Notes: generated by a model not told the origin, from the letters alone. Shown: positions 55,949 to 64,000, numbered from the stretch's first letter. The stretch is DNA of 64,000 bases from Candidatus Kapaibacterium sp. (GCA_963665665.1 OY762428.1:2016001-2080000), one strand, 5' to 3'. Translations and numbers: made by a program.

Positions 55949-58711
55949 TTAATTCTCAATGATAATAACATAACCCCTGCTGTACTTCGATACCGGATCG
56001 AGCCATTTGCCTTCCTTCATCAGGTCGAATTCCATAAAATATTTGCCGCCAAGTTCAGGCACAACAAAGTTATATTCAACTTCCGAAACTGATAATGGCG
56101 TAAATGCCCTGGGCTGTGATTCATATATAATTTTTCTGGTGGCAAAATCCCTGAGCCTGATATTTAATGAAACATCATTTCCAAGTGATCTCATAAGGTC
56201 AAAAATATCGAAATTGAATTCAACAGTATCCCCGGGTGAGAAATTAAATTCCGGCAGCTTGAATATCGGGTCAAGGACTATGTCATAATCCTGCCAGGGG
56301 AAGAAATCAAGTGATTCTAATGACTTGGGCAGCCTTTTGCCCTGTATCTGTACGGAATCAACCTTTATTCCTATAAGTTTTTTCTTTTTATTTCTTTGCA
56401 GGTCTCCGAAGAATTCGATATTCAGCACGGGGGGAATCTTCTTCATCTTGAAATCTATTTTAAATTCCCATTCCCCCGGCCGCATATCATAGTTAAAGAC
56501 CTCTTCCTTGTTTATCTTTACTATCATATTTTGCTTGATCTTGTTGTTGTTCGTTACTTTCAGCCAGAGCGCTGTTGCCGTGTCGTTCGGGCGTAGCGGC
56601 ATGGTAATATTTGCACTGCCGTTTATCCAGCGATGTTCGTAAAAGCCCTTAGTTAGAGTTCCATAAAACGAAGTATCCAGCAGGTCGCGGTTCAGGTATG
56701 ACGGGGCAAGAGCCACCAGTCCCTGGTCTGCCCTGCTGTTCTTCAGCCACAGGTAATCATCGCTGTCAAATTCCTTTGCGATAAGGAATGCAGCATTGTT
56801 TTTTAAGTTATATTCCGGATTATTTGTGAGCAATACAGGGCTGTCAGAAGTGTCATTTTTAATCGTAATAAATTCAGCTTTTAATTCCGGGCACTGATAT
56901 TGGTAATTAAATACGTTGGGAGAATTTTTGGTAGCAAGGTCTATTGCCAAATTGTTCTCAGCTACCCCGGATACTCGTAGAGCATTTGTAATAATATTTC
57001 TTTCCAGGCGATTCTGATGGTGATATTGAATAACATAAATATATGTGACTGCCGAAAATGCAATGAACACAAGCCCCATGGCCGGAAAAGCAACATAAGG
57101 CAGCTTTTTGCCAAGAAAACCGACAAATAAATAACCCGCCAGCATGAAAGCTGTGAAAATCATTATATTTATTGTTCCGAGCGCAGAACGCAACGGGAAG
57201 AATGACATGAAGTTTCTGAAAGAAGGTTCCGCTTCGATAATATTTCCGTAAGTGGAAAGCGGCAGGATAACAGATATTGCAATAATCACAAATGCTGCCA
57301 GATGTATCTTCCAGTTAAAGAAAGCTTTTCTATCAACAATACCGTAAAGGGCAAAGGCAAATACAGGAGCCAGGAAAACCTCTGCGTAACGGCCATAGAA
57401 GAACCTGTCCGGACGGTAATCCATATCGGTAATACCGAGGTTGGTAATAATAAAAAGCATTCCGAACACATTCAGTATCAGGTACATTAGCGCAACGCTG
57501 CCGGGATCTTTCAGCAGTTCCTGCCATTTCATTTCTGATTTGGTTGCCATATAATAAACCATGTATGCAATGCCAAAGGCAAAAAAACCGAAAGTGGCGA
57601 CATTCAGGTAATAAATTTTACCACTAACGTTTATAACCCATTTCCATAGTGAATCCAGGATAAAATCAATGAAATCCGGGCCGGGAATAACAGCATAAGT
57701 CATTCCGAGAAATATAGCGAGGAATATCATCAGCTTTATCAGGTCTTTCCAGTTGAATTTGCCTTTAAAAGTCAATAATACAACAAATGCTGATTGAATA
57801 AGCAGCAAAGCAAGTCCGATCATTATTGTCGTTGAATTATAACGCAGCAGAAAGGCTGATACAATGCCGGTGATTGATAGATTTATATAATGCAGGTTGT
57901 GTTTTTTTGGAAGGAACATTCCGGAGAGAACAGCCATGATTACTATCAGAAGGTCAATCCTCCCAAAAAGCTGCTCAATTATCTGCTCAATTGAATTTTG
58001 CTCGCCGTGCATCAGGCTGCTGAGCTGCTCACCGTAGGATAAGGAAAAAATCAGAACAAAGAAATTTATTATCAGAACGGTTGAACCGAAACTGGCATCC
58101 AGAGACTTACGGCGCATCAGGAATATCAGGAATACGAAATTAAGGAATATAATAGATATACCCCTGACATGAATTGTGTAAATCAGTACGGAAACAAGTG
58201 CAAATAAAACAGTCGATACCCAGTCCTGCTTTTTATAAAAATATGCAAATGAAAAGATGAGCAATGCAAAAAATGCCGGGGTCACGGCATCAGTCCATGC
58301 CATCTTTGATTGCAGGAAAAATGCCGGGTAAAGCGAGATAACGAAGGACAGAAGCAGAGACCTGTTTGTCTTAAGTTTAAAAATATGATGCAGTAAAAGA
58401 AAAAGCCATATTACGATGGTAGCGGAAAGTATGCCGTTAATTACCAGCGCCGCTTTGTAAATCATAGCGGGATCGCTGAAAAGCATGAATGCGGGAGAGA
58501 TTATCATGGAATATCCAAAACCACTGGGCTGTCCGCCGCCGGGATAAACGGGCATGGAACCGCCCGCAATATAACGCGCTTTGCCAAGGTATCCGAATTC
58601 ATCGCCTGCTACAACAGGGGTTTCAAGGCTGAGTCCCATAATAATATGTGTTGCTGCAAGAATAATATATGCTGTAAAGATTACGATAAATGTTTTTCTG
58701 TTTTCTTTCAT
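55949..58711 (-). CDS. Large polytopic membrane protein, GT-C (PMT/ArnT-like) glycosyltransferase-like with soluble C-terminal domains
   Basis: GDEFGY in the first loop, many TM helices, YGRY motif; TAnnTTTG at 58752-58759 (-) favours a start at 58723 or 58711. Confidence 0.6.
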   Translation of the reverse strand: MKENRKTFIVIFTAYIILAATHIIMGLSLETPVVAGDEFGYLGKARYIAGGSMPVYPGGGQPSGFGYSMIISPAFMLFSDPAMIYKAALVINGILSATIVIWLFLLLHHIFKLKTNRSLLLSFVISLYPAFFLQSKMAWTDAVTPAFFALLIFSFAYFYKKQDWVSTVLFALVSVLIYTIHVRGISIIFLNFVFLIFLMRRKSLDASFGSTVLIINFFVLIFSLSYGEQLSSLMHGEQNSIEQIIEQLFGRIDLLIVIMAVLSGMFLPKKHNLHYINLSITGIVSAFLLRYNSTTIMIGLALLLIQSAFVVLLTFKGKFNWKDLIKLMIFLAIFLGMTYAVIPGPDFIDFILDSLWKWVINVSGKIYYLNVATFGFFAFGIAYMVYYMATKSEMKWQELLKDPGSVALMYLILNVFGMLFIITNLGITDMDYRPDRFFYGRYAEVFLAPVFAFALYGIVDRKAFFNWKIHLAAFVIIAISVILPLSTYGNIIEAEPSFRNFMSFFPLRSALGTINIMIFTAFMLAGYLFVGFLGKKLPYVAFPAMGLVFIAFSAVTYIYVIQYHHQNRLERNIITNALRVSGVAENNLAIDLATKNSPNVFNYQYQCPELKAEFITIKNDTSDSPVLLTNNPEYNLKNNAAFLIAKEFDSDDYLWLKNSRADQGLVALAPSYLNRDLLDTSFYGTLTKGFYEHRWINGSANITMPLRPNDTATALWLKVTNNNKIKQNMIVKINKEEVFNYDMRPGEWEFKIDFKMKKIPPVLNIEFFGDLQRNKKKKLIGIKVDSVQIQGKRLPKSLESLDFFPWQDYDIVLDPIFKLPEFNFSPGDTVEFNFDIFDLMRSLGNDVSLNIRLRDFATRKIIYESQPRAFTPLSVSEVEYNFVVPELGGKYFMEFDLMKEGKWLDPVSKYSRGYVIIIEN

Positions 58712-58949
58712 GCCTGATTTCATTCTGAATAGGATTACATAATTCCAAACGCAAAGATAAGAATTTAATATATGATAATACAAATTGAATCTTGTGAATA
58801 TGCAAACAACTATATTCTGATGTTAGTAATTTTATTCTTGTATTTTCATATAAAAGCATTAAATTTGACCTTTAGGATGGAACAATTTGGACTTTGGTTT
58901 AAAATTTTTCATATTTTGTTTCACTAAACTTTGGTTTTCGTTATAGTTA

Positions 58950-59483
58950 ATGGATGAATGCTTACATACGGGGGGGCAGGCTGATACCCGTGAATTGAAC
59001 TGGTATCCGTTTTATACGCGCAGCCGCCATGAGAAAAAAGCCTATCAAAACCTTATTCGTGAAGGTTATAATGCTTATTTGCCTCTAAAGAAATCTGTAA
59101 GGCAGTGGAGCGACCGCAGGAAAATTGTGGAAACGCCGCTGATTTCTTCCTATGTATTTGCCAAAACAACGAGAGACCAACTTTACAACATAGTAAAACT
59201 CGACGGAATAGCACGTTACATCAGCTTTGCCGGCCAGCCTGCCACGATTCGGGACAAAGAAATTGATATTATCCGAAAAGCCTTGACTGAGGATACGGAA
59301 CTGGAAGTTAAGGATGGTATGCTGGGCGAGGGCCGCGAAGTGAAATTAAACGCCGGGCCTTTCATGGGATACTCCGGAAAGGTAATAAAACTAAAAGGGA
59401 AAAACAGGCTTGTGATTGAGATTGAAGCCTTGAATAAAACTTTGTTGATTACAGTTGAAAGAAATCAACTGTCGGGAAGATAA
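58950..59483 (+). CDS. UpxY-family transcription antiterminator (NusG paralog)
   Basis: WYPFYTRSRHEKK, YLPL....RQWSDRRKIVETPLISSYVF, KOW motif G.EV....GPF.G..G. Confidence 0.9.
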   Translation: MDECLHTGGQADTRELNWYPFYTRSRHEKKAYQNLIREGYNAYLPLKKSVRQWSDRRKIVETPLISSYVFAKTTRDQLYNIVKLDGIARYISFAGQPATIRDKEIDIIRKALTEDTELEVKDGMLGEGREVKLNAGPFMGYSGKVIKLKGKNRLVIEIEALNKTLLITVERNQLSGR

Positions 59484-59632
59484 ACCCGAATCAACCGCTT
59501 ATTATAATAAATATTGCGGTATACTTATAAAATACAATGATTTGTCCGTAGGCCACAGATGTGACTGAAAGGGCTGTGCCTTGGAAAGAGGGAAAGAAAA
59601 CACTTTGACACTTGCAAAATTGAAATCTAAAG

Positions 59633-59895
59633 TTCCCCTCTTGGGGGGTGGCGAGCGCAGCGAGACGGGGTGGATTCTTAATTGAAAATTTGAAATTGAT
59701 ATTTAATAATGCTGTATAGCTTAAAAATATTCATAGATGTCATCCTGAGCGAAAGCGAAGGATCCATTCTTCAACAATATCAGCAAAGAAAAAATGCATT
59801 CTTCAGTCCCAAGCTCAGGAAGCCTGCCCCAACCAGTCGGGAAATGACAAAAGGGTTGTTGATGGAAAATGAAGAAGAACCGGACATAAATATAT
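59633..59895 (+). repeat. Modular inter-cassette repeat R1
   Basis: TTCCCCTC..GGGGTG module, ATGCTGTATAGCTTAAAAA, GTCATCCTGAGC..AATGAC palindrome, GAAAATGAAGAAGAA..ACATAAAT. Confidence 0.8.
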
Positions 59896-60192
59896 ATGAG
59901 TAAGTCTGATAAGAATATAAAACTGATAGAATTTATTGACAGGAATAGACGGCTTTTCTGGTATATTCCTGATGATGCCATGCATGACATAAGCGACGAA
60001 CTGATACTGGAAAATACTCTTAATTATGCAGGCCTTGATTCTATTGTGGAATATTTCAATATTATCGGACTAAGTAGGGCAGCCGGTATATTCAAGTCCT
60101 TGCACGGCAGAAAAAAGCACAATATCTCTCCCGAAATTTATAATTTTTTTTCACTGGTATTTAAAAGGTATGTACCCGGATATTCTAAATAA
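59896..60192 (+). CDS. Small protein, putative antitoxin partner of AbiEii-like nucleotidyltransferase
   Basis: LFWY...E..LNY motif; 3' end overlaps the NTase gene by 23 nt. Confidence 0.65.
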   Translation: MSKSDKNIKLIEFIDRNRRLFWYIPDDAMHDISDELILENTLNYAGLDSIVEYFNIIGLSRAAGIFKSLHGRKKHNISPEIYNFFSLVFKRYVPGYSK

Positions 60193-60784
60193 AAAACAAA
60201 TTGAATTACTTGAATTATGTAAAGTTTTCAAAAGGGAATTTTATCTTGCCGGAGGTACTGCTATTGCTCTTCAGATTGGACACAGATCGTCAATTGATTT
60301 CGACTTTTTTAAAAAGTCTGCAATCAATCCAAAAAAAGTTATCGACAAAATTGAAAAAGCAGGTTACGATCACTCAATTGTCCGCGCAACATCTGACCAG
60401 CTTGATGTTTTTGTTAACGATGTAAAACTTACATTCCTGCATTATCCATTTGAAGTTGAAGCAAAACAGAAAATGGATAATTATTTCAGGACGCCGGAAT
60501 TGATTTCCCTGGCAGCCCTGAAGGCTTATGCTCTTGGCAGGCGTTCGAAGTGGAAAGATTATGTCGATCTTTATATTTTGATAAACAGGCATTTTTCAAT
60601 TAATGATATATCCCTTAAAGCCGGAGAAATTTTCGGTCAGCTTTTTTCAGAAAAACTTTTTCGAAGTCAGCTATCCTATTTTGATGATATTGATTATTCC
60701 GAACCAGTGATATGGAGCGGCCATGAATTTTCGGCTGATGAGATAAAAGCTTTTTTAGAAGAAAAATCAACCGAAATATTTTAA
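60170..60784 (+). CDS. AbiEii/AbiGii-family nucleotidyltransferase
   Basis: FYLAGGTAIALQIGHRSSIDFDFF; KAYALGRR..KDYVDLY. Confidence 0.85.
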   Translation: MYPDILNKKQIELLELCKVFKREFYLAGGTAIALQIGHRSSIDFDFFKKSAINPKKVIDKIEKAGYDHSIVRATSDQLDVFVNDVKLTFLHYPFEVEAKQKMDNYFRTPELISLAALKAYALGRRSKWKDYVDLYILINRHFSINDISLKAGEIFGQLFSEKLFRSQLSYFDDIDYSEPVIWSGHEFSADEIKAFLEEKSTEIF

Positions 60785-60835
60785 TTTCTAATGTATAAAA
60801 TGCCCCATAAGGGATTGACTATTTAATTAGAAATT

Positions 60836-61040
60836 GATAATTAAAAATGCTTCATAGCTTAAATAAATCGAGAAATGGAAGTATCCTCCCCCTTAATCCC
60901 CCTCCAAAGGGGGACATCCCAGAATTCCCATCGAGAGGTGGATTGCGAAGGATCCATTCTTCAACAGTATCAGCAGGAAAAGATGGATTCTTCAGTCGCA
61001 AGCTCCTTCAGAATGACAAGAGGGTTCTTCAAATGAAAAT
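60836..61040 (+). repeat. Modular inter-cassette repeat R2
   Basis: GATAATTAAAAATGCTTCATAGCTTAAA..CCCCCTTAATCCCCCTCCAAAGGGGGAC..GCGAAGGATCC..GGATTCTTC..GAATGAC. Confidence 0.85.
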
Positions 61041-61078
61041 TAAAAATAATAACAACCGAAAATGAATAACCAAGACTG

Positions 61079-61402
61079 ATGGGCAGAAAAAATAAAAAGA
61101 AAAAATATTACGATGAGCCTCTGAGCAAGGAAATGATCAGTAATATTATACATGAGGCTGTAGAAAAGCAGATAAAGGAGAAGAATCCTCCGGAGGTTGC
61201 GAGAACTTATTACAGGCTGATAGTTATGGGATTGAGTTCCAAAGATGCAAAATCACAAATAATACGGGCTTTTTCAATTGAACTCAGGCAAAGTAAAAAA
61301 TCGGACTATGCCTGGGAAAAAGAATCATATATAGAAATACTTGAAATGCTCCCCATGGAAGATGAGGAATTATATGCTCTTTACCATAGTTTCGAGGACT
61401 AA
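61079..61402 (+). CDS. Hypothetical protein (helical; V..QI....PPE...Y.RL...G pattern)
   Basis: 107-aa ORF with protein-like composition; possible DUF1841-like similarity is recalled, not verified. Confidence 0.55.
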   Translation: MGRKNKKKKYYDEPLSKEMISNIIHEAVEKQIKEKNPPEVARTYYRLIVMGLSSKDAKSQIIRAFSIELRQSKKSDYAWEKESYIEILEMLPMEDEELYALYHSFED

Positions 61403-61455
61403 AGAAATAATCACGATAAGAGTGCAAAGTAAATTAAGCAACTAAGCTATCAATA

Positions 61456-61764
61456 ATGGAAAACGTTGAACAAATAAAGAATATACTTGAAAAAATCTTC
61501 TGGGATATGAACCCCGGGGAGAAAAACAGAAATATCAATATTATTTTGTCGGACAAAAAATCAGTCCTGTCCGATAAACGAATACTGATAAAATTGCTTA
61601 CGGGGCTTGCATGGTACGACCTGCAAAAACTTTTCACGCAGGAAGAATTAAAATCTGCCTTAAATTATGATGTTATTGACAAATTATTCCCGGTTTCCTT
61701 AAGAAATTATTATAATGATGCCGCAAAATTACTACGAAAATATTCTTTACCCTCTGCAGGATAA
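61456..61764 (+). CDS. Small protein, putative antitoxin partner of second AbiEii-like NTase
   Basis: IFWDMN..., WYDL; 3' end overlaps the NTase gene by 50 nt. Confidence 0.6.
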   Translation: MENVEQIKNILEKIFWDMNPGEKNRNINIILSDKKSVLSDKRILIKLLTGLAWYDLQKLFTQEELKSALNYDVIDKLFPVSLRNYYNDAAKLLRKYSLPSAG

Positions 61765-62404
61765 AATTTTAAAATTGGTAAGCTTAGCCAAAACTGATTT
61801 CTACCTGACAGGCGGAACTGCTCTTAGCAGGGTTTACCTAAATCACAGGTATTCAGACGATTTGGATTTTTTTGTTAATAACAGCCCTGATTTTAAGCCG
61901 GCCGTGGAAGCAGTTCTAAATATTTTTGATGATGGGGAAGTTATCTATAAGCCAATTTCAACAAATAACGGATTTGTCAGGTTGGTAATTAATGATAAAA
62001 ACTGCAATCTGAAAATTGACTTTGTTAACGATATTTCTTTCAGAGCGGGTGAAGTTGGTGAATGGAAGAAATACCCGAGAGTAGATAATATGCTGAATAT
62101 ATTATCTAATAAGATTACTGCACTGACGCGCTACGAAACTAAGGATATCGTGGATATTGTCCATATTGCTGTCAAAACAGAATTTAGCTGGGAAGAAATC
62201 TTCAACGATGCCCTCCAAAAAGATGTTTGGGCAAACCCGGTGGAAGCTGCAAAGATTCTTGATGCTTTCCCAACAGGAAAACTTAAAGAAATAAAATGGA
62301 TAGCTGATAGTCCGGATGAAACGATCTTTTCGGATTATATTTCCCAAATTATTCAGGATATTCTTTCAGGCAAAGACAATAGCCTTTTTGGAATTTGCAA
62401 ATAA
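61715..62404 (+). CDS. AbiEii/AbiGii-family nucleotidyltransferase
   Basis: FYLTGGTALSRVYLNHRYSDDLDFF; KIDFVND; NK..A..R...KDIVDI. Confidence 0.85.
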   Translation: MMPQNYYENILYPLQDKILKLVSLAKTDFYLTGGTALSRVYLNHRYSDDLDFFVNNSPDFKPAVEAVLNIFDDGEVIYKPISTNNGFVRLVINDKNCNLKIDFVNDISFRAGEVGEWKKYPRVDNMLNILSNKITALTRYETKDIVDIVHIAVKTEFSWEEIFNDALQKDVWANPVEAAKILDAFPTGKLKEIKWIADSPDETIFSDYISQIIQDILSGKDNSLFGICK

Positions 62405-62407
62405 AAA

Positions 62408-62601
62408 ATTCCCATCGAGGGGTGTCCGAAGGGCGGGGTGGATTCTTCAATTAAATAATTAACAATGCTTCATAGCTTAAAAAAATTGATAAATAGTAGT
62501 ATCCTTCCCCTTAATCCCCCTCCAAAGGGGGACATCCCAGAATTCCCATCGAGGGGTGGATTTATTATTGAAAATGAAGAAGAAATAAAACATAAATTCA
62601 A
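62408..62601 (+). repeat. Modular inter-cassette repeat R3
   Basis: ATTCCCATCGAGGGGTG twice, ATGCTTCATAGCTTAAAAA, CCCCTTAATCCCCCTCCAAAGGGGGAC, GAAAATGAAGAAGAA..ACATAAAT. Confidence 0.85.
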
Positions 62602-62796
62602 ATGATAGATAAATCAGCAATAAATATTACAAGCAAAAACAACGATACATCTGAAATTGAATATTGGAGCCGTAAAACGCCGATATTGCGGATTCTTGCT
62701 TTAGAAGAATTGAGAAAAGAATATATTAAGTGGAAACATGATTCAGAGCCGGGATTTCAAAGAGTTTATAAAATTATTAAACTCAAAGAAAGTTAA
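62602..62796 (+). CDS. Small protein preceding nucleotidyltransferase (putative partner)
   Basis: YW..KTP..RI.ALE.LR...FQRVY pattern; overlaps the next gene by 59 nt. Confidence 0.6.
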   Translation: MIDKSAINITSKNNDTSEIEYWSRKTPILRILALEELRKEYIKWKHDSEPGFQRVYKIIKLKES

Positions 62797-63217
62797 ATAT
62801 ATGATAATTGGCGGCTATGCTGTTGCTTACCATGGATATCCCAGATATACGGGCGATATAGATTTTTGGATTGATAATAGCAGGGAAAATGCCAGAAGAA
62901 TTATTGCGGTTCTTAACGATTTTGGATTCGATTCACTTGAGATAAAACCTGATGATCTTGCTAATCCTGATAATGTAATTCAACTTGGATTCCCTCCGAA
63001 CAGGATAGATTTGATTTGCGGTATTGAGGGGATTGATTATAACAATGCTTATGATAATTCTGAAATAACCGAAATTGATGGCGAAAAGATCAGGTTTATA
63101 AATCTTGACGATTTGATAACCACCAAGAGTATTAGCGCCCGAAAACAGGATCTGGCCGATATTGATAAACTTGAAAAGATTCGCCTGATGAGGAAAAACC
63201 TTAATGGAAAGAGTTAA
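62738..63217 (+). CDS. Minimal nucleotidyltransferase (DUF6036-like)
   Basis: DFKEF..LLN...Y.IIGGYAVAYHGYPRYTGDIDFW; K...R.QD.AD. Confidence 0.8.
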   Translation: MIQSRDFKEFIKLLNSKKVKYMIIGGYAVAYHGYPRYTGDIDFWIDNSRENARRIIAVLNDFGFDSLEIKPDDLANPDNVIQLGFPPNRIDLICGIEGIDYNNAYDNSEITEIDGEKIRFINLDDLITTKSISARKQDLADIDKLEKIRLMRKNLNGKS

Positions 63218-63285
63218 TTAAAATAAACACGCAAAGGCGCTGAGAACTCAAAGAAAAAAATTCACCTTGTATGTTTGTAAAGACA

Positions 63286-63467
63286 GATAATTAAAAATGC
63301 TTCATAACTTAAAAATATTCAAAAATGGAAGTATCCTCCCCCTTAATCCCCCTCCAAAGGGGGACAATCCAGAATTCCTATCAAGGGGTGAATGCGAAGG
63401 ATACATTCTTCAACACTATCAGCAGGAAAAGATGGATTCTTCAGTCGCAAGCTCCCTCTGAATGACA
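63286..63467 (+). repeat. Modular inter-cassette repeat R4
   Basis: Direct repeat of R2 (60836-61018) with scattered substitutions. Confidence 0.85.
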
Positions 63468-63518
63468 TTTACACACTTGTTCCATTAGCTTCATAGTTCT
63501 GCTAAGTACATAATAAAA

Positions 63519-64000
63519 ATGCAAGTCACAGAAAAATATATTGACAGTCTCCTTAATCAGGGCGAAAACAGCGGGGTAGAGTTTAAATCCGCTGATGTGC
63601 GGGTCGAATCCCTTGCAAAGGAAATCGTGGCTTTTGCAAATACTTCCGGCGGTACTGTTTTGTTGGGCGTGGATGATGATTCTACTATTTCAGGCCTCTT
63701 GCCAGATAAGAATTATGAAGAATGGGTTATGAATATTGCCCGCAACAATATAATCCCGGCTATTCAGCTTGATTACAGCGAACACGAGAAAAATAGAAAA
63801 ACAATTGCCATTATCAATGTTCCTAAGGGCAAGGACAAACCCTACCAGGCAAATGACAATAAATTTTATCTCAGGGTTGGATCTACAAACAGGGTTGCCA
63901 CTATAAATGAACTACTCAGGTTGTTTCAGGAGAGCGGCGCTTTTCATTATGATATTACCAGCGTGGATGGAAGCAGCCCCAAAGCTCTGAATTTCTTCAA
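63519..64000 (+). CDS. AlbA_2 (Schlafen-like) DNA-binding domain protein, 3' end outside window
   Basis: Manual translation MQVTEKYIDSLLNQGENSGVEFKS...EIVAFANTSGGTVLLGVDDD...KPY....FYLRVGSTNR. Confidence 0.8.
   Translation, partial: MQVTEKYIDSLLNQGENSGVEFKSADVRVESLAKEIVAFANTSGGTVLLGVDDDSTISGLLPDKNYEEWVMNIARNNIIPAIQLDYSEHEKNRKTIAIINVPKGKDKPYQANDNKFYLRVGSTNRVATINELLRLFQESGAFHYDITSVDGSSPKALNFF

Follow-up and report, generated by a model that had tools for sequence, protein, structure and literature searches.

UpxY proteins are antiterminators of long polysaccharide operons, and in Bacteroides fragilis the UpxY-responsive region sits 5′ of upxY rather than 3′. The locus of Candidatus Kapaibacterium sp. 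described here, whose front lies at the end of the 64,000-nt stretch of DNA that was analyzed (the window), resembles the capsular operons of Bacteroides in that an NF033644-positive upxY stands at the head of glycan biosynthesis genes that keep one orientation over more than 27 kb. It differs from them in that 9.9 kb of non-glycan modules separates upxY from the glycan genes. B. fragilis carries eight UpxY according to one report (PMC7593976), whereas this genome has a single UpxY.

The modules within the array have counterparts in other described systems. MenAT1/AbiE (DUF1814) systems, like the array, combine a minimal nucleotidyltransferase (NTase) containing the GG...D.D motif with a small overlapping upstream gene, as in the pairing of MenT1 with MenA1, an antitoxin of 68 aa (PMC10435456). 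These systems are stand-alone bicistrons, whereas the array lies inside an operon, and its partner proteins are without a detectable family and mutually unrelated. Integron cassette arrays, including the chromosomal ones rich in toxin-antitoxin (TA) genes, also consist of co-oriented small, often TA-type genes, each marked by a repeat, and a single upstream promoter is plausible here too; unlike in integrons, IntI, attI, and an attC sequence or fold were lacking, and the mosaic repeat is built in part from genome-wide elements. The repeat has four modules. A and D resemble BIME/REP and MITE-like repeats in being short hairpins that are variable in order and intergenic in 252 of the 257 copies outside the array, whereas B and C occur at a single locus of the genome and the array copies all have one orientation. 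Finally, the clustering of modules and the matches to ORF6N, AlbA_2, and AbiEii are shared with defence islands recognized by PADLOC; in contrast to these, the present island is situated inside a biosynthetic operon, 3′ of its antiterminator, and has no mobile-element genes at its flanks.

Organization of the locus

The upxY gene (58950–59483, + strand) encodes a NusG-like transcription antiterminator of 177 aa, which scored 144.2 bits with NF033644 against a cut-off of 100 and also matched Pfam NusG and KOW. In a whole-genome search, it was the only UpxY above the model cut-off, the runner-up reaching 69.7 bits. TAnnTTTG is the Bacteroidota −7 consensus, and a pattern scan with it located a candidate promoter box at 58860–58867 (+ strand), 83 nt 5′ of the upxY start. 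Only one other + strand box was found in the non-coding DNA of the region, in spacer IG3, and the scan detected no obvious promoter in the interval between the array and the glycan genes.

The 9.9 kb that follows upxY comprises eight repeat-delimited, co-oriented units, and all of its 17 genes and 31 repeat modules share one orientation. These units are four MenAT1-like pairs, a MazF pair fused to ORF6N, an MNT-HEPN pair, a lone ORF6N, and an AlbA_2 protein. Unit 1 (59896–60784, + strand) consists of a 98-aa gene without a known family (59896–60192) and a 204-aa AbiEii/MenT-type NTase (60170–60784) that overlap by 23 nt; the NTase scored 48.8 bits with PF08843 (cut-off, 22.5) and also matched PADLOC AbiEii models. 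Unit 2 (61079–62404, + strand) contains a 107-aa hypothetical protein (61079–61402), a 102-aa partner (61456–61764), and a 229-aa AbiEii/MenT-type NTase (61715–62404; PF08843, 44.7 bits, cut-off 22.5), the genes of the latter two overlapping by 50 nt. In unit 3 (62602–63217, + strand), a 64-aa partner (62602–62796) overlaps by 59 nt a minimal NTase of 159 aa (62738–63217), which gave 33.5 bits with DUF2204 and 26.1 bits with DUF6036. Unit 4 (63519–64000, + strand) is cut by the window end; its full ORF (L001:5519–6673), ending at window-equivalent position 64673, encodes a 384-aa AlbA_2/Schlafen + HATPase_c_4 protein (PF04326, 85.9 bits; PF13749, 66.9 bits) that matches pAgo-associated PADLOC models and domains. 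ORF6N matched the PADLOC candidate PDC-S05 with 270 bits. No match to the UpxZ family was found among the array proteins scanned. Elsewhere, the genome has six more MNT-type matches and one more ORF6N locus.

The preliminary description, made from the window, had placed co-oriented units of a small gene and an NTase after upxY, and all main ORFs 3′ of upxY are indeed on the + strand. The further repeat-and-cassette units that it suggested looking for downstream are present as well, the array continuing for 5.4 kb past the window end. It had also raised the possibility that a polysaccharide locus begins with the array, and this is supported: co-oriented glycan genes start at L001:11361 on the + strand, beyond the window, and continue for at least 27 kb past the array. 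Their products include a GATase/AsnB-like amidotransferase, a UDP-GlcNAc 2-epimerase (Epimerase_2, 334 bits), a formyltransferase (Formyl_trans_C), an epimerase/dehydratase (Epimerase/GDP_Man_Dehyd), an MBOAT protein, and a MatE-type protein.

Nucleotidyltransferases, their partners, and their occurrence in Bacteroidia

In all four NTase pairs, the small gene lies upstream of the NTase gene and overlaps it. The four paralogous NTases are 21–43% identical to one another, and each has separate relatives in other families. The NTases of units 3 and 7 share 43% identity, and the two AbiEii-like NTases share 28% while their small partners are unrelated, in agreement with the earlier view that the cassette genes are unrelated or highly divergent. 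Pfam AbiEii was above its cut-off in two of the four, and the other two fell under DUF2204/DUF6036. The GG...D.D motif was conserved in the alignment, with the residues equivalent to D40 and D42 invariant in all four, and an NTase profile searched against structures matched MenT1 (PDB 8an4, E = 2.2e-9) and AbiGII (9hlo, E = 7.8e-4). By their sequences, the array NTases are members of the AbiEii/MenT superfamily of toxins, and the AbiEii-type kinship noted in the preliminary description is upheld by the PF08843, PADLOC, and MenT1 profile matches.

A predicted complex of one NTase with its 60-aa partner gave an ipSAE of 0.60 (runs, 0.60, 0.53, and 0.68), with 0.00 for the best control; the calibration is only rough with a user-supplied alignment, as used for this pair. 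The partner had a pLDDT of at least 62, the run-to-run contact agreement was at least 0%, and the tool graded the prediction as "weak support." To pass, a pair must score 0.32 and exceed every control by 0.20; in the calibration, 58 of 80 solved complexes did so, as did 2 of 110 mismatched pairs, and passing scores of 0.60 or less came from only 7 of the 80 solved complexes and from both of the mismatched pairs that passed.

UpxY loci of other families again contain three of the four partner families, two of which sit directly 5′ of a homologous NTase, in genomes G260 and G281. The third, the family of the 102-aa partner, has this arrangement in G281, whereas in G006 it is followed by a PIN pair, and a partner and NTase pair similar to unit 3 is located just 3′ of upxY in G260. 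The UpxY-led operons of G281, G236, G006, and G072 have partner and NTase pairs and MNT-HEPN pairs interspersed among their glycan genes. All NTase-profile matches of G000 (4/4), G281 (3/3), and G236 (3/3) were inside the UpxY locus; sequences from these three genomes built the profile, and the informative part is that no further copies occur elsewhere in them.

In 151 Bacteroidia genomes, 17 of the 150 NTase-profile matches listed were near upxY (−5 to +30 kb from the listed upxY and on its strand), distributed over eight genomes with four matches in G000. The remaining matches listed were farther away on the same contig (8), on other contigs (68), or in genomes without a listed UpxY (57). 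Among independent genomes, 6 of 81 matches were near upxY, compared with approximately 0.4 expected from a genome-size estimate, an excess that is inflated by kinship among those genomes. Twenty sampled copies away from upxY adjoin housekeeping genes, such as those for SAM synthetase, gyrase, and AIR synthase, and glycan families were absent from the 25 commonest Pfam families of their 119 neighbours. In the majority of the 62 other Bacteroidia UpxY loci examined, glycan genes follow upxY directly, with few or no such inserts. The tie between NTase pairs and UpxY loci is not general.

Spacers and repeat modules

The spacers are mosaics of modules A, B, C, and D, which were located by nhmmer and are given here on the + strand. 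Spacer IG0 (R1; 59484–59895) has a unique leader of approximately 145 nt, followed by A (59630–59697), B (59681–59739), and a full-length D (59746–59860) that best matches the genome-wide D copies. IG1 (R2; 60785–61078) is composed of B (60819–60878), C (60870–60951), and a truncated D, termed D′ (60935–61042). IG2 (R3; 62405–62601) contains A (62404–62462), B (62435–62494), C (62488–62565), and a short A-like hairpin; it also includes one terminator-like hairpin in the sense strand (L001 4546–4559). IG3 (R4; 63218–63518) begins with a degenerate A-like segment and continues with B (63270–63328), C (63320–63399), and D′ (63384–63496); its TAnnTTTG box, a perfect −7 match, is at 63270–63277. 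Spacer IG7 has no B. The repeats R1–R4 reported previously before each unit are real: a 108-nt stretch is present in three copies (93% and 88% identity to the reference copy), a 53-nt stretch in four, and R2 and R4 share a 78-nt stretch at 94% identity.

The modules differ in their distribution. A genome-wide census detected 83 copies of A and 189 of D, on the + strand in 44 and 103 cases, respectively. For the copies outside the array, a crude gene caller placed 74 of 76 for A and 178 of 181 for D in intergenic DNA. Within the array, all 31 module copies are in the sense orientation. The A and D copies elsewhere flank unrelated genes, and no TA or NTase family was found among 20 proteins scanned from nine other repeat clusters. 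A and D have colonized the array spacers as they did hundreds of other intergenic sites. In contrast, all nine nhmmer hits of B (E ≤ 1e-3) and all seven of C in the 5.46-Mb genome are in this locus, the next best hits having E-values of 0.83 and 0.0038, respectively. The preliminary description had named scattering of the repeats over the genome regardless of such genes as counting against its reading; this holds for A and D and fails for B and C. The only Y1_Tnp in the genome (75.7 bits, C1:1821817) has no A or D within 6 kb and is flanked by a different repeat, and thus no RAYT flanked by A or D was found.

B sits roughly 100–260 nt 5′ of the next start codon, as read off the coordinates. 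A 23-nt core of C is invariant in all seven copies, with variable flanks, and the NTase gene at L001:9343–9828 takes its stop codon from a C element. The minus strand of C gave 32.4, 32.1, and 29.2 bits with the whalefall-1 RNA (RF01762), below the gathering value of 37, the 32.4 bits coming from the C core in IG1, and no match at gathering level was obtained in L001 or in a relative's tandem arrays. Neither B nor A was found in any other UpxY locus fetched. The repeat unit folds as separate small hairpins, with unremarkable z values (RNA, −1.8; DNA, −1.5).

The five D copies located after a C have their best hits among one another, whereas the two without a preceding C best match genome-wide copies. 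Since the post-C copies are closest to each other, the B-C-D′ composite spread locally. The unit postdates the genes: its copies are 85–94% identical, compared with 21–43% for the NTase paralogues. ORF6N, together with 45 nt of flank, was duplicated locally (93% identity). The earlier proposal of recombination between the repeats is supported to the extent of this duplication and the local B-C-D′ spread. In reads of the likely source run, all joints between spacers had short sides of at most 36 nt and fit other genomic copies of A and D.

Explanations for the array

The reading to which we give slightly better than an even chance is that a toxin-antitoxin/defence island sits within an antiterminated UpxY operon, where it is tolerated and transcribed through, with local recombination among its spacers. 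The cassette modules would be mostly promoter-less and transcribed from the upxY promoter, and UpxY-modified polymerase would cross the hairpin-rich spacers. Insertions may be tolerated because, as we propose, UpxY read-through keeps the distal glycan genes from being silenced. Gene conversion or unequal crossing-over, starting from the B and D homology that the spacers share, would carry B-C-D′ from one spacer to another, and this homology would also permit duplication and loss of units. Against this reading, IG3 contains a perfect −7 box, B itself could be an unrecognized promoter, and NTase pairs are not generally tied to UpxY loci. Tolerance alone leaves unexplained the confinement of B to the locus and its presence in nearly every spacer.

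These features of B suit an unlikely alternative, in which B (or B-C-D′) is a functional cis-element and not a by-product of recombination: an internal promoter or 5′ leader common to all cassettes and co-regulating them, or, on the long transcript, an RNA-processing or stabilizing site or a site for UpxY reloading. All nine copies of B are here, always in sense and roughly 100–260 nt before the next start; the C core is invariant though its flanks differ; and the units are much better conserved than the genes they separate. Nevertheless, no + strand TAnnTTTG box was scored within B, and the fold of the unit is ordinary. IG7 lacks B, the responsive region in B. fragilis is 5′ of upxY, and homologous cassettes elsewhere work without B, since it is absent, as is A, from the other UpxY loci fetched. 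Somewhat less likely still is an ordinary island that merely neighbours upxY, in which the modules have their own promoters and autoregulation and UpxY is irrelevant. TA pairs usually have promoters of their own, most of the homologous NTase pairs of other genomes are away from upxY, and this genome holds further MNT-type and ORF6N matches; however, the embedded pairs recur in UpxY-led operons of at least four other genera, the near-upxY matches among independent genomes exceed expectation even if kinship inflates them, and a single orientation is kept throughout the array. Moreover, no other UpxY and no obvious promoter serve the glycan genes, so that transcription must cross the array if UpxY controls them.

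The preliminary description had likened the array to an integron, and unrelated genes each preceded by one locus-specific direct repeat, in a unit younger than the genes, would suit the capture of cassettes at B-C-D′ by a site-specific recombinase, either unlike known types or with its gene at another place, that inserts and excises them as units. We consider such capture very improbable. The best TIGR02249 match in the whole genome scored 90.5 bits against an IntI cut-off of 265, and all 10 Phage_integrase (tyrosine-recombinase) matches are more than 500 kb from the locus. The attC core sites have the consensus RYYYAAC ... GTTRRRY, and a search with it on both strands of the 9.9-kb array yielded no pairs, compared with 2.0 ± 1.9 in 200 shuffles. 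The separate short hairpins are not attC-like, the B..C pattern occurred in no other genome or metagenome-contig record searched, and the spacer joints in the reads fit other A and D copies. With IntI, a recombinase within 500 kb, attC sites, and their fold all absent, identity as an integron was rejected.

Under the favoured reading of a tolerated, read-through island, the pairs are predicted to act as toxin-antitoxin or abortive-infection modules and may also stabilize the locus against loss. If this reading is true, the front of the UpxY operon would be a place where small modules of the selfish or defence type collect.

Organization of the upxY locus

The source genome (G000) consists of a single contig (C1) of 5,458,198 bp, of which the window covers bases 2,016,001–2,080,000, and the next 34 kb beyond it were fetched as stretches L001 and L002. 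L001 positions are converted to window positions by adding 58,000. upxY (58950–59483) scored 144.2 bits against NF033644 (cut-off, 100) and was the sole UpxY gene above the cut-off in the whole genome. Every substantial ORF after upxY was found on the plus strand. On the opposite strand upstream of upxY, genes encoding a release factor, a Mur ligase, and a membrane protein assigned to no family were found. This 944-aa multi-pass membrane protein, encoded divergently from upxY (55949–58783, minus strand), had no Pfam or NCBIfam match, and its position beside the glycan locus suggests a role in the handling of glycosyl groups or polymers.

upxY was followed by an array of eight units separated by spacers (IG0–IG7). 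Within the window, three units contained a nucleotidyltransferase (NTase) gene whose start was overlapped by a small upstream partner gene by 23, 50, and 59 nt. Two of these NTases were AbiEii-like (PF08843, 48.8 and 44.7 bits; cut-off, 22.5), and the third matched DUF2204 (33.5 bits) and DUF6036 (26.1 bits). The other array genes in the window were one encoding a 107-aa hypothetical protein and the start of an AlbA_2 gene. Everything that the preliminary description had listed (upxY, NTase units, small genes, and AlbA_2) was present. Past the window, the array continued with the genes for the AlbA_2 protein, which also carries HATPase_c_4 (384 aa), and an ORF6N protein (179 aa); a 69-aa gene, a MazF/PemK gene, and a second ORF6N gene with no spacers separating the three; a 60-aa gene with a fourth minimal NTase gene (161 aa); and genes for an MNT protein (99 aa) and a HEPN-type "NTase_sub_bind" protein (134 aa).

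Behind these further cassette units, glycan genes started at L001:11361 and continued on the plus strand throughout, to at least C1:2,112,370. They encode a GATase/AsnB-like enzyme, a UDP-GlcNAc 2-epimerase (334 bits), a Formyl_trans_C protein, an NAD-dependent epimerase/dehydratase, an MBOAT protein, and a MatE-type protein. Because these co-oriented genes lie downstream, the earlier guess that the array is the front of a polysaccharide locus was correct. This reading and that of the cassettes as toxin-antitoxin (TA)-like are both supported by homology and context. A short heptamer run was also observed just 5′ of the first glycan gene (L001 11090–11130).

Alignment of the four NTases revealed a shared conserved GG...D.D motif, and a profile built from them matched MenT1 (8an4, E=2.2e-9), two structures annotated as "putative", and AbiGII. 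MenT1 is described in PMC10435456 as a tRNA-modifying toxin that is neutralised by the adjacently encoded 68-aa MenA1. For the small partners, no family was found, and the 60-aa partner matched only unnamed clusters of a protein atlas, with a best score of 0.89. Three of the four partner families recurred at other UpxY loci: the 64-aa family was located directly 5′ of a homologous NTase gene in G260, and the 60-aa family likewise in G281, where the 102-aa family also preceded a homologous NTase gene directly, but in G006 the 102-aa family was found before a PIN pair. For one NTase–partner pair, a complex was predicted with an ipSAE of 0.60 (0.60, 0.53, and 0.68 in the individual runs; best control, 0.00), a partner pLDDT of at least 62, and a run agreement of at least 0%, and the prediction was graded as "weak support" by the tool. 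Among the other array proteins, ORF6N matched the PADLOC candidate PDC-S05 (270 bits), and the AlbA_2 protein matched pAgo-associated PADLOC models.

Repeat modules and recombination in the array

The repeats R1–R4 of the preliminary description, which correspond to IG0–IG3, are real: a 108-nt stretch occurred three times with 88–93% identity, and a further 78 nt were 94% identical between R2 and R4. The spacers were mosaics of four modules, namely A, a small hairpin that is rich in G+C and has an AT-rich tail; B, an AT-rich segment of about 60 nt; C, an approximately 80-nt hairpin with a 23-nt core invariant in all seven copies; and D, an approximately 110-nt hairpin. Whole-genome profile searches yielded nine matches for B (next-best E=0.83) and seven for C (next-best E=0.0038), all of which were on the plus strand at the array locus. 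The same type of search gave 83 matches for A and 189 for D across the genome. Outside the array, 74 of 76 A copies and 178 of 181 D copies were intergenic according to our crude gene caller (4045 genes, 86% coding), with every flank configuration represented. The array was the largest A/D cluster in the genome (15 matches in 9.5 kb), and 16 other clusters had at least four matches. No TA or NTase family was detected among 20 proteins scanned from nine of these other clusters; the proteins had matches to MreB, DUF1016_N, MauE/DoxX, or the MGMT DNA-binding domain, low-complexity matches, or no match. The preliminary description had set its reading against repeats scattered through the genome without regard to such genes. 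A and D are scattered in this way, and B and C are not; the possibility that all the repeats are genome-wide REP-like elements was ruled out for B and C by their confinement to the array locus.

The second-largest A/D cluster (G000:C1:1772061–1777849; L023) contained 10 copies in 5.8 kb, adjoined mreB, and included two 151-aa ORFs assigned to no family. The sole clear Y1 (IS200/RAYT-like) transposase gene in the genome (G000:C1:1821400–1822700) was flanked on both sides by a different repeat family, not by A or D. At two cassette-bearing UpxY loci in other genomes, L058 (G260:C91) and L053 (G236:C18), the spacers were filled throughout by tandem 7–8-nt repeats and the hairpin repeats of their own genomes.

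An integron-like mechanism, proposed earlier for the array, was not supported. Integrons comprise IntI and attC sites, whereas neither was detected here. The best match to the integron-integrase model in the whole genome scored 90.5 bits against a cut-off of 265, and all 10 tyrosine recombinase matches in the genome were more than 500 kb away from the array. Core-site pairs of the attC type, searched with what we take to be the core-site consensus, numbered 0 in the array against 2.0 ± 1.9 expected. In addition, the composite unit B-C-D′, in which a truncated D follows C, was predicted to fold into separate short hairpins with ordinary z-scores and not into an attC-like structure. The integron reading was rejected on these four grounds. 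B and A were absent from all other UpxY loci fetched, and searches of genome_contigs and metagenome_contigs for the composite B..C pattern gave no further record.

The five D copies located after a C lacked the usual 5′ arm and were mutual best matches with 85–94% identity, which indicates that B-C-D′ is one locally spread composite. The two D copies without a preceding C (IG0 and IG6) had their best matches among the genome-wide copies. The genes are older than B-C-D′: the NTase paralogues were 28% and 43% identical with unrelated partners, individual NTases and partners had separate relatives in other families, and the C element of IG7 began within the NTase reading frame and provided the NTase stop codon. 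A plausible route would have started from spacers already sharing B and D, one of which gained C; C may then have been carried to the remaining spacers by gene conversion or unequal crossing-over. The two ORF6N genes provide direct evidence of recombination inside the array: their proteins were 94% identical, and the duplicated segment began 5 nt 5′ of the start codon and ended 45 nt past the stop codon.

Contigs from read archives were also mapped (contigs only; minimum likeness, 88). In the X4 run, which carries a second organism label and belongs to another study, upxY, IG0 (A, B, and D), and unit 1 were found on a single contig, which showed 70 differences and 10 gaps relative to the source genome along 2875 nt. 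Fragments of units 2, 3, 4, and 6 were also present; the MNT–HEPN unit and the glycan genes had no cover, which is not evidence of their absence, and unit order was not comparable because the contigs break at repeats. In X7, a marine-metagenome contig (depth, 7.75), the end of the unit-3 NTase gene was joined to an A module mapping at IG5, nominally skipping 2220 nt. Since the 63-nt side of this joint consists of a repeated A module, inside which the contig ends, the joint was not taken as proof that cassettes had been lost; it indicates only a different spacer make-up after the unit-3 NTase gene. The joints in the likely source run had sides of at most 36 nt and were compatible with other A/D copies.

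A BLAST search with B and C against 40 relatives returned only C-core copies, in G009, G007, and G021. G009, a genome of the same family, contained 30 or more copies of the C core, which were often repeated in tandem with a period between 49 and about 110 nt, and the C core therefore behaves as a REP-type element and not as a single-copy RNA gene. In G007, C-like copies were present in frame within two neighbouring genes for paralogous proteins (322 and 500 aa; copies at L022 2963–3035 and 4459–4531; G007:C23), which looks like insertion of a repeat element into genes with the frame intact. The C core also matched Rfam whalefall-1 below the threshold (32 bits vs 37, minus strand) at window positions 60870–60951, 62488–62565, and 63320–63399. 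The stretches L019 2230–2464, L020 1356–1540, and L021 1942–2189 belong to the same set of C-core sequences. To our knowledge, whalefall-1 has so far been known solely from whale-fall metagenomes.

Cassettes at UpxY loci of other genomes

UpxY was uncommon in the taxonomic surroundings of the source organism: with the source genome counted, a UpxY above the cut-off was present in 6 of the 61 family genomes, in 8 of 121 for the order, and in 62 of 151 for the class. When UpxY proteins were sought in metagenome_contigs, one relative only (37% identical) was returned. We fetched 60 class- and order-level UpxY loci and two from the family. In G006 and G072, both of the same family, a pair consisting of MNT and a 151-aa protein was located one gene past upxY, and a PIN pair was also present in the G006 locus. 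In G281 and G236, partner-plus-NTase and MNT–HEPN pairs were interspersed among the glycan genes. All genome-wide matches to the NTase profile were located at the UpxY locus in the source genome (4/4), G281 (3/3), and G236 (3/3); the profile was built from sequences of these genomes, and only the lack of further copies is informative.

Within 8 kb 3′ of upxY, 108 small co-oriented ORFs were scanned at those 56 loci for which 3 kb or more of sequence was available. Among the most frequent families were 23S_rRNA_IVP (8) and NTP_transf_2 (6), and rarer ones were PDDEXK_3 (2), NTase_sub_bind (1), PIN (1), and DUF559 (1). The 23S rRNA intervening-sequence protein family (PF05635) was thus the commonest small gene just after upxY (8/108; L041–L100, 60 Bacteroidia genomes). 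Three ORFs of G236 located antisense between glycan genes had the same N-terminal motif as PF05635 proteins, a likeness of sequence motif only.

Among the 150 NTase-profile matches listed for 151 genomes (three more exist), 17 were located between −5 and +30 kb of the listed upxY on its strand, 8 at a greater distance on the upxY contig, 68 on a different contig, and 57 in genomes without a listed UpxY. In 20 sampled copies away from upxY, an upstream gene of 63–76 aa was usually kept, and the neighbours were housekeeping, not glycan, genes (119 of 124 scanned, five long proteins being left out). In view of these housekeeping neighbours, the idea that such NTase cassettes occur at polysaccharide loci only was rejected. 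Taken together, the evidence for and against indicates that the link with UpxY operons holds as an enrichment in certain lineages and is not general, and the source genome is its extreme case. In many Bacteroidia, a conserved pair of an approximately 65-aa gene and a minimal NTase gene (about 150–155 aa) was co-oriented among gyrase, SAM synthetase, and AIR synthase genes (L101–L120), which points to an uncharacterised MenAT1-like family of wide distribution that becomes embedded in operons.

Transcription and significance of the array

All 31 module copies in the array were in sense orientation, and A and D were near 50:50 genome-wide, favouring by about 2:1 the direction of the flanking genes where these are co-directional. 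Four A-module sites were terminator-like on the antisense strand only, in a sigma-70-type scan that suits Bacteroidota poorly. Non-coding TAnnTTTG sequences, possible −7 promoter boxes of Bacteroidota, were found on the plus strand at two places only, 83 nt 5′ of upxY and in IG3. These patterns may serve as weak clues to transcription.

We lean, with some reserve, toward the view that the array forms a TA/defence island that is tolerated inside an antiterminated operon and transcribed through; on this view, its spacers were colonised by genome-wide repeats, and a local composite spreads in it and mediates rearrangement via homologous recombination. A bolder view holds that UpxY-led operons are dedicated expression docks for promoter-less MenAT-like and other TA/defence modules, that B-C-D′ is an active element, serving either as a capture recombination site without an integron integrase or as a site of antiterminator re-engagement, and that surface-glycan and abortive-infection genes are turned on together as a single phage-defence programme. 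We regard these three propositions, taken jointly, as improbable. TA arrays within UpxY-led operons were not found described in the main text of the articles covered by our full-text searches; TA genes are mentioned among rfaH neighbours in PMC7593976.

If the array is read through from the upxY promoter, operons driven by a specialised NusG paralogue are able to take up numerous selfish or defence modules and suffer no polar damage. Surface polysaccharide is a determinant of phage receptors, and such read-through would tie TA and abortive-infection genes to the expression state of the surface polysaccharide. As a compact natural test bed, the locus offers four MenT-like pairs that are divergent and have new small partners, together with a repeat unit that can be traced from strain to strain as it spreads locally.
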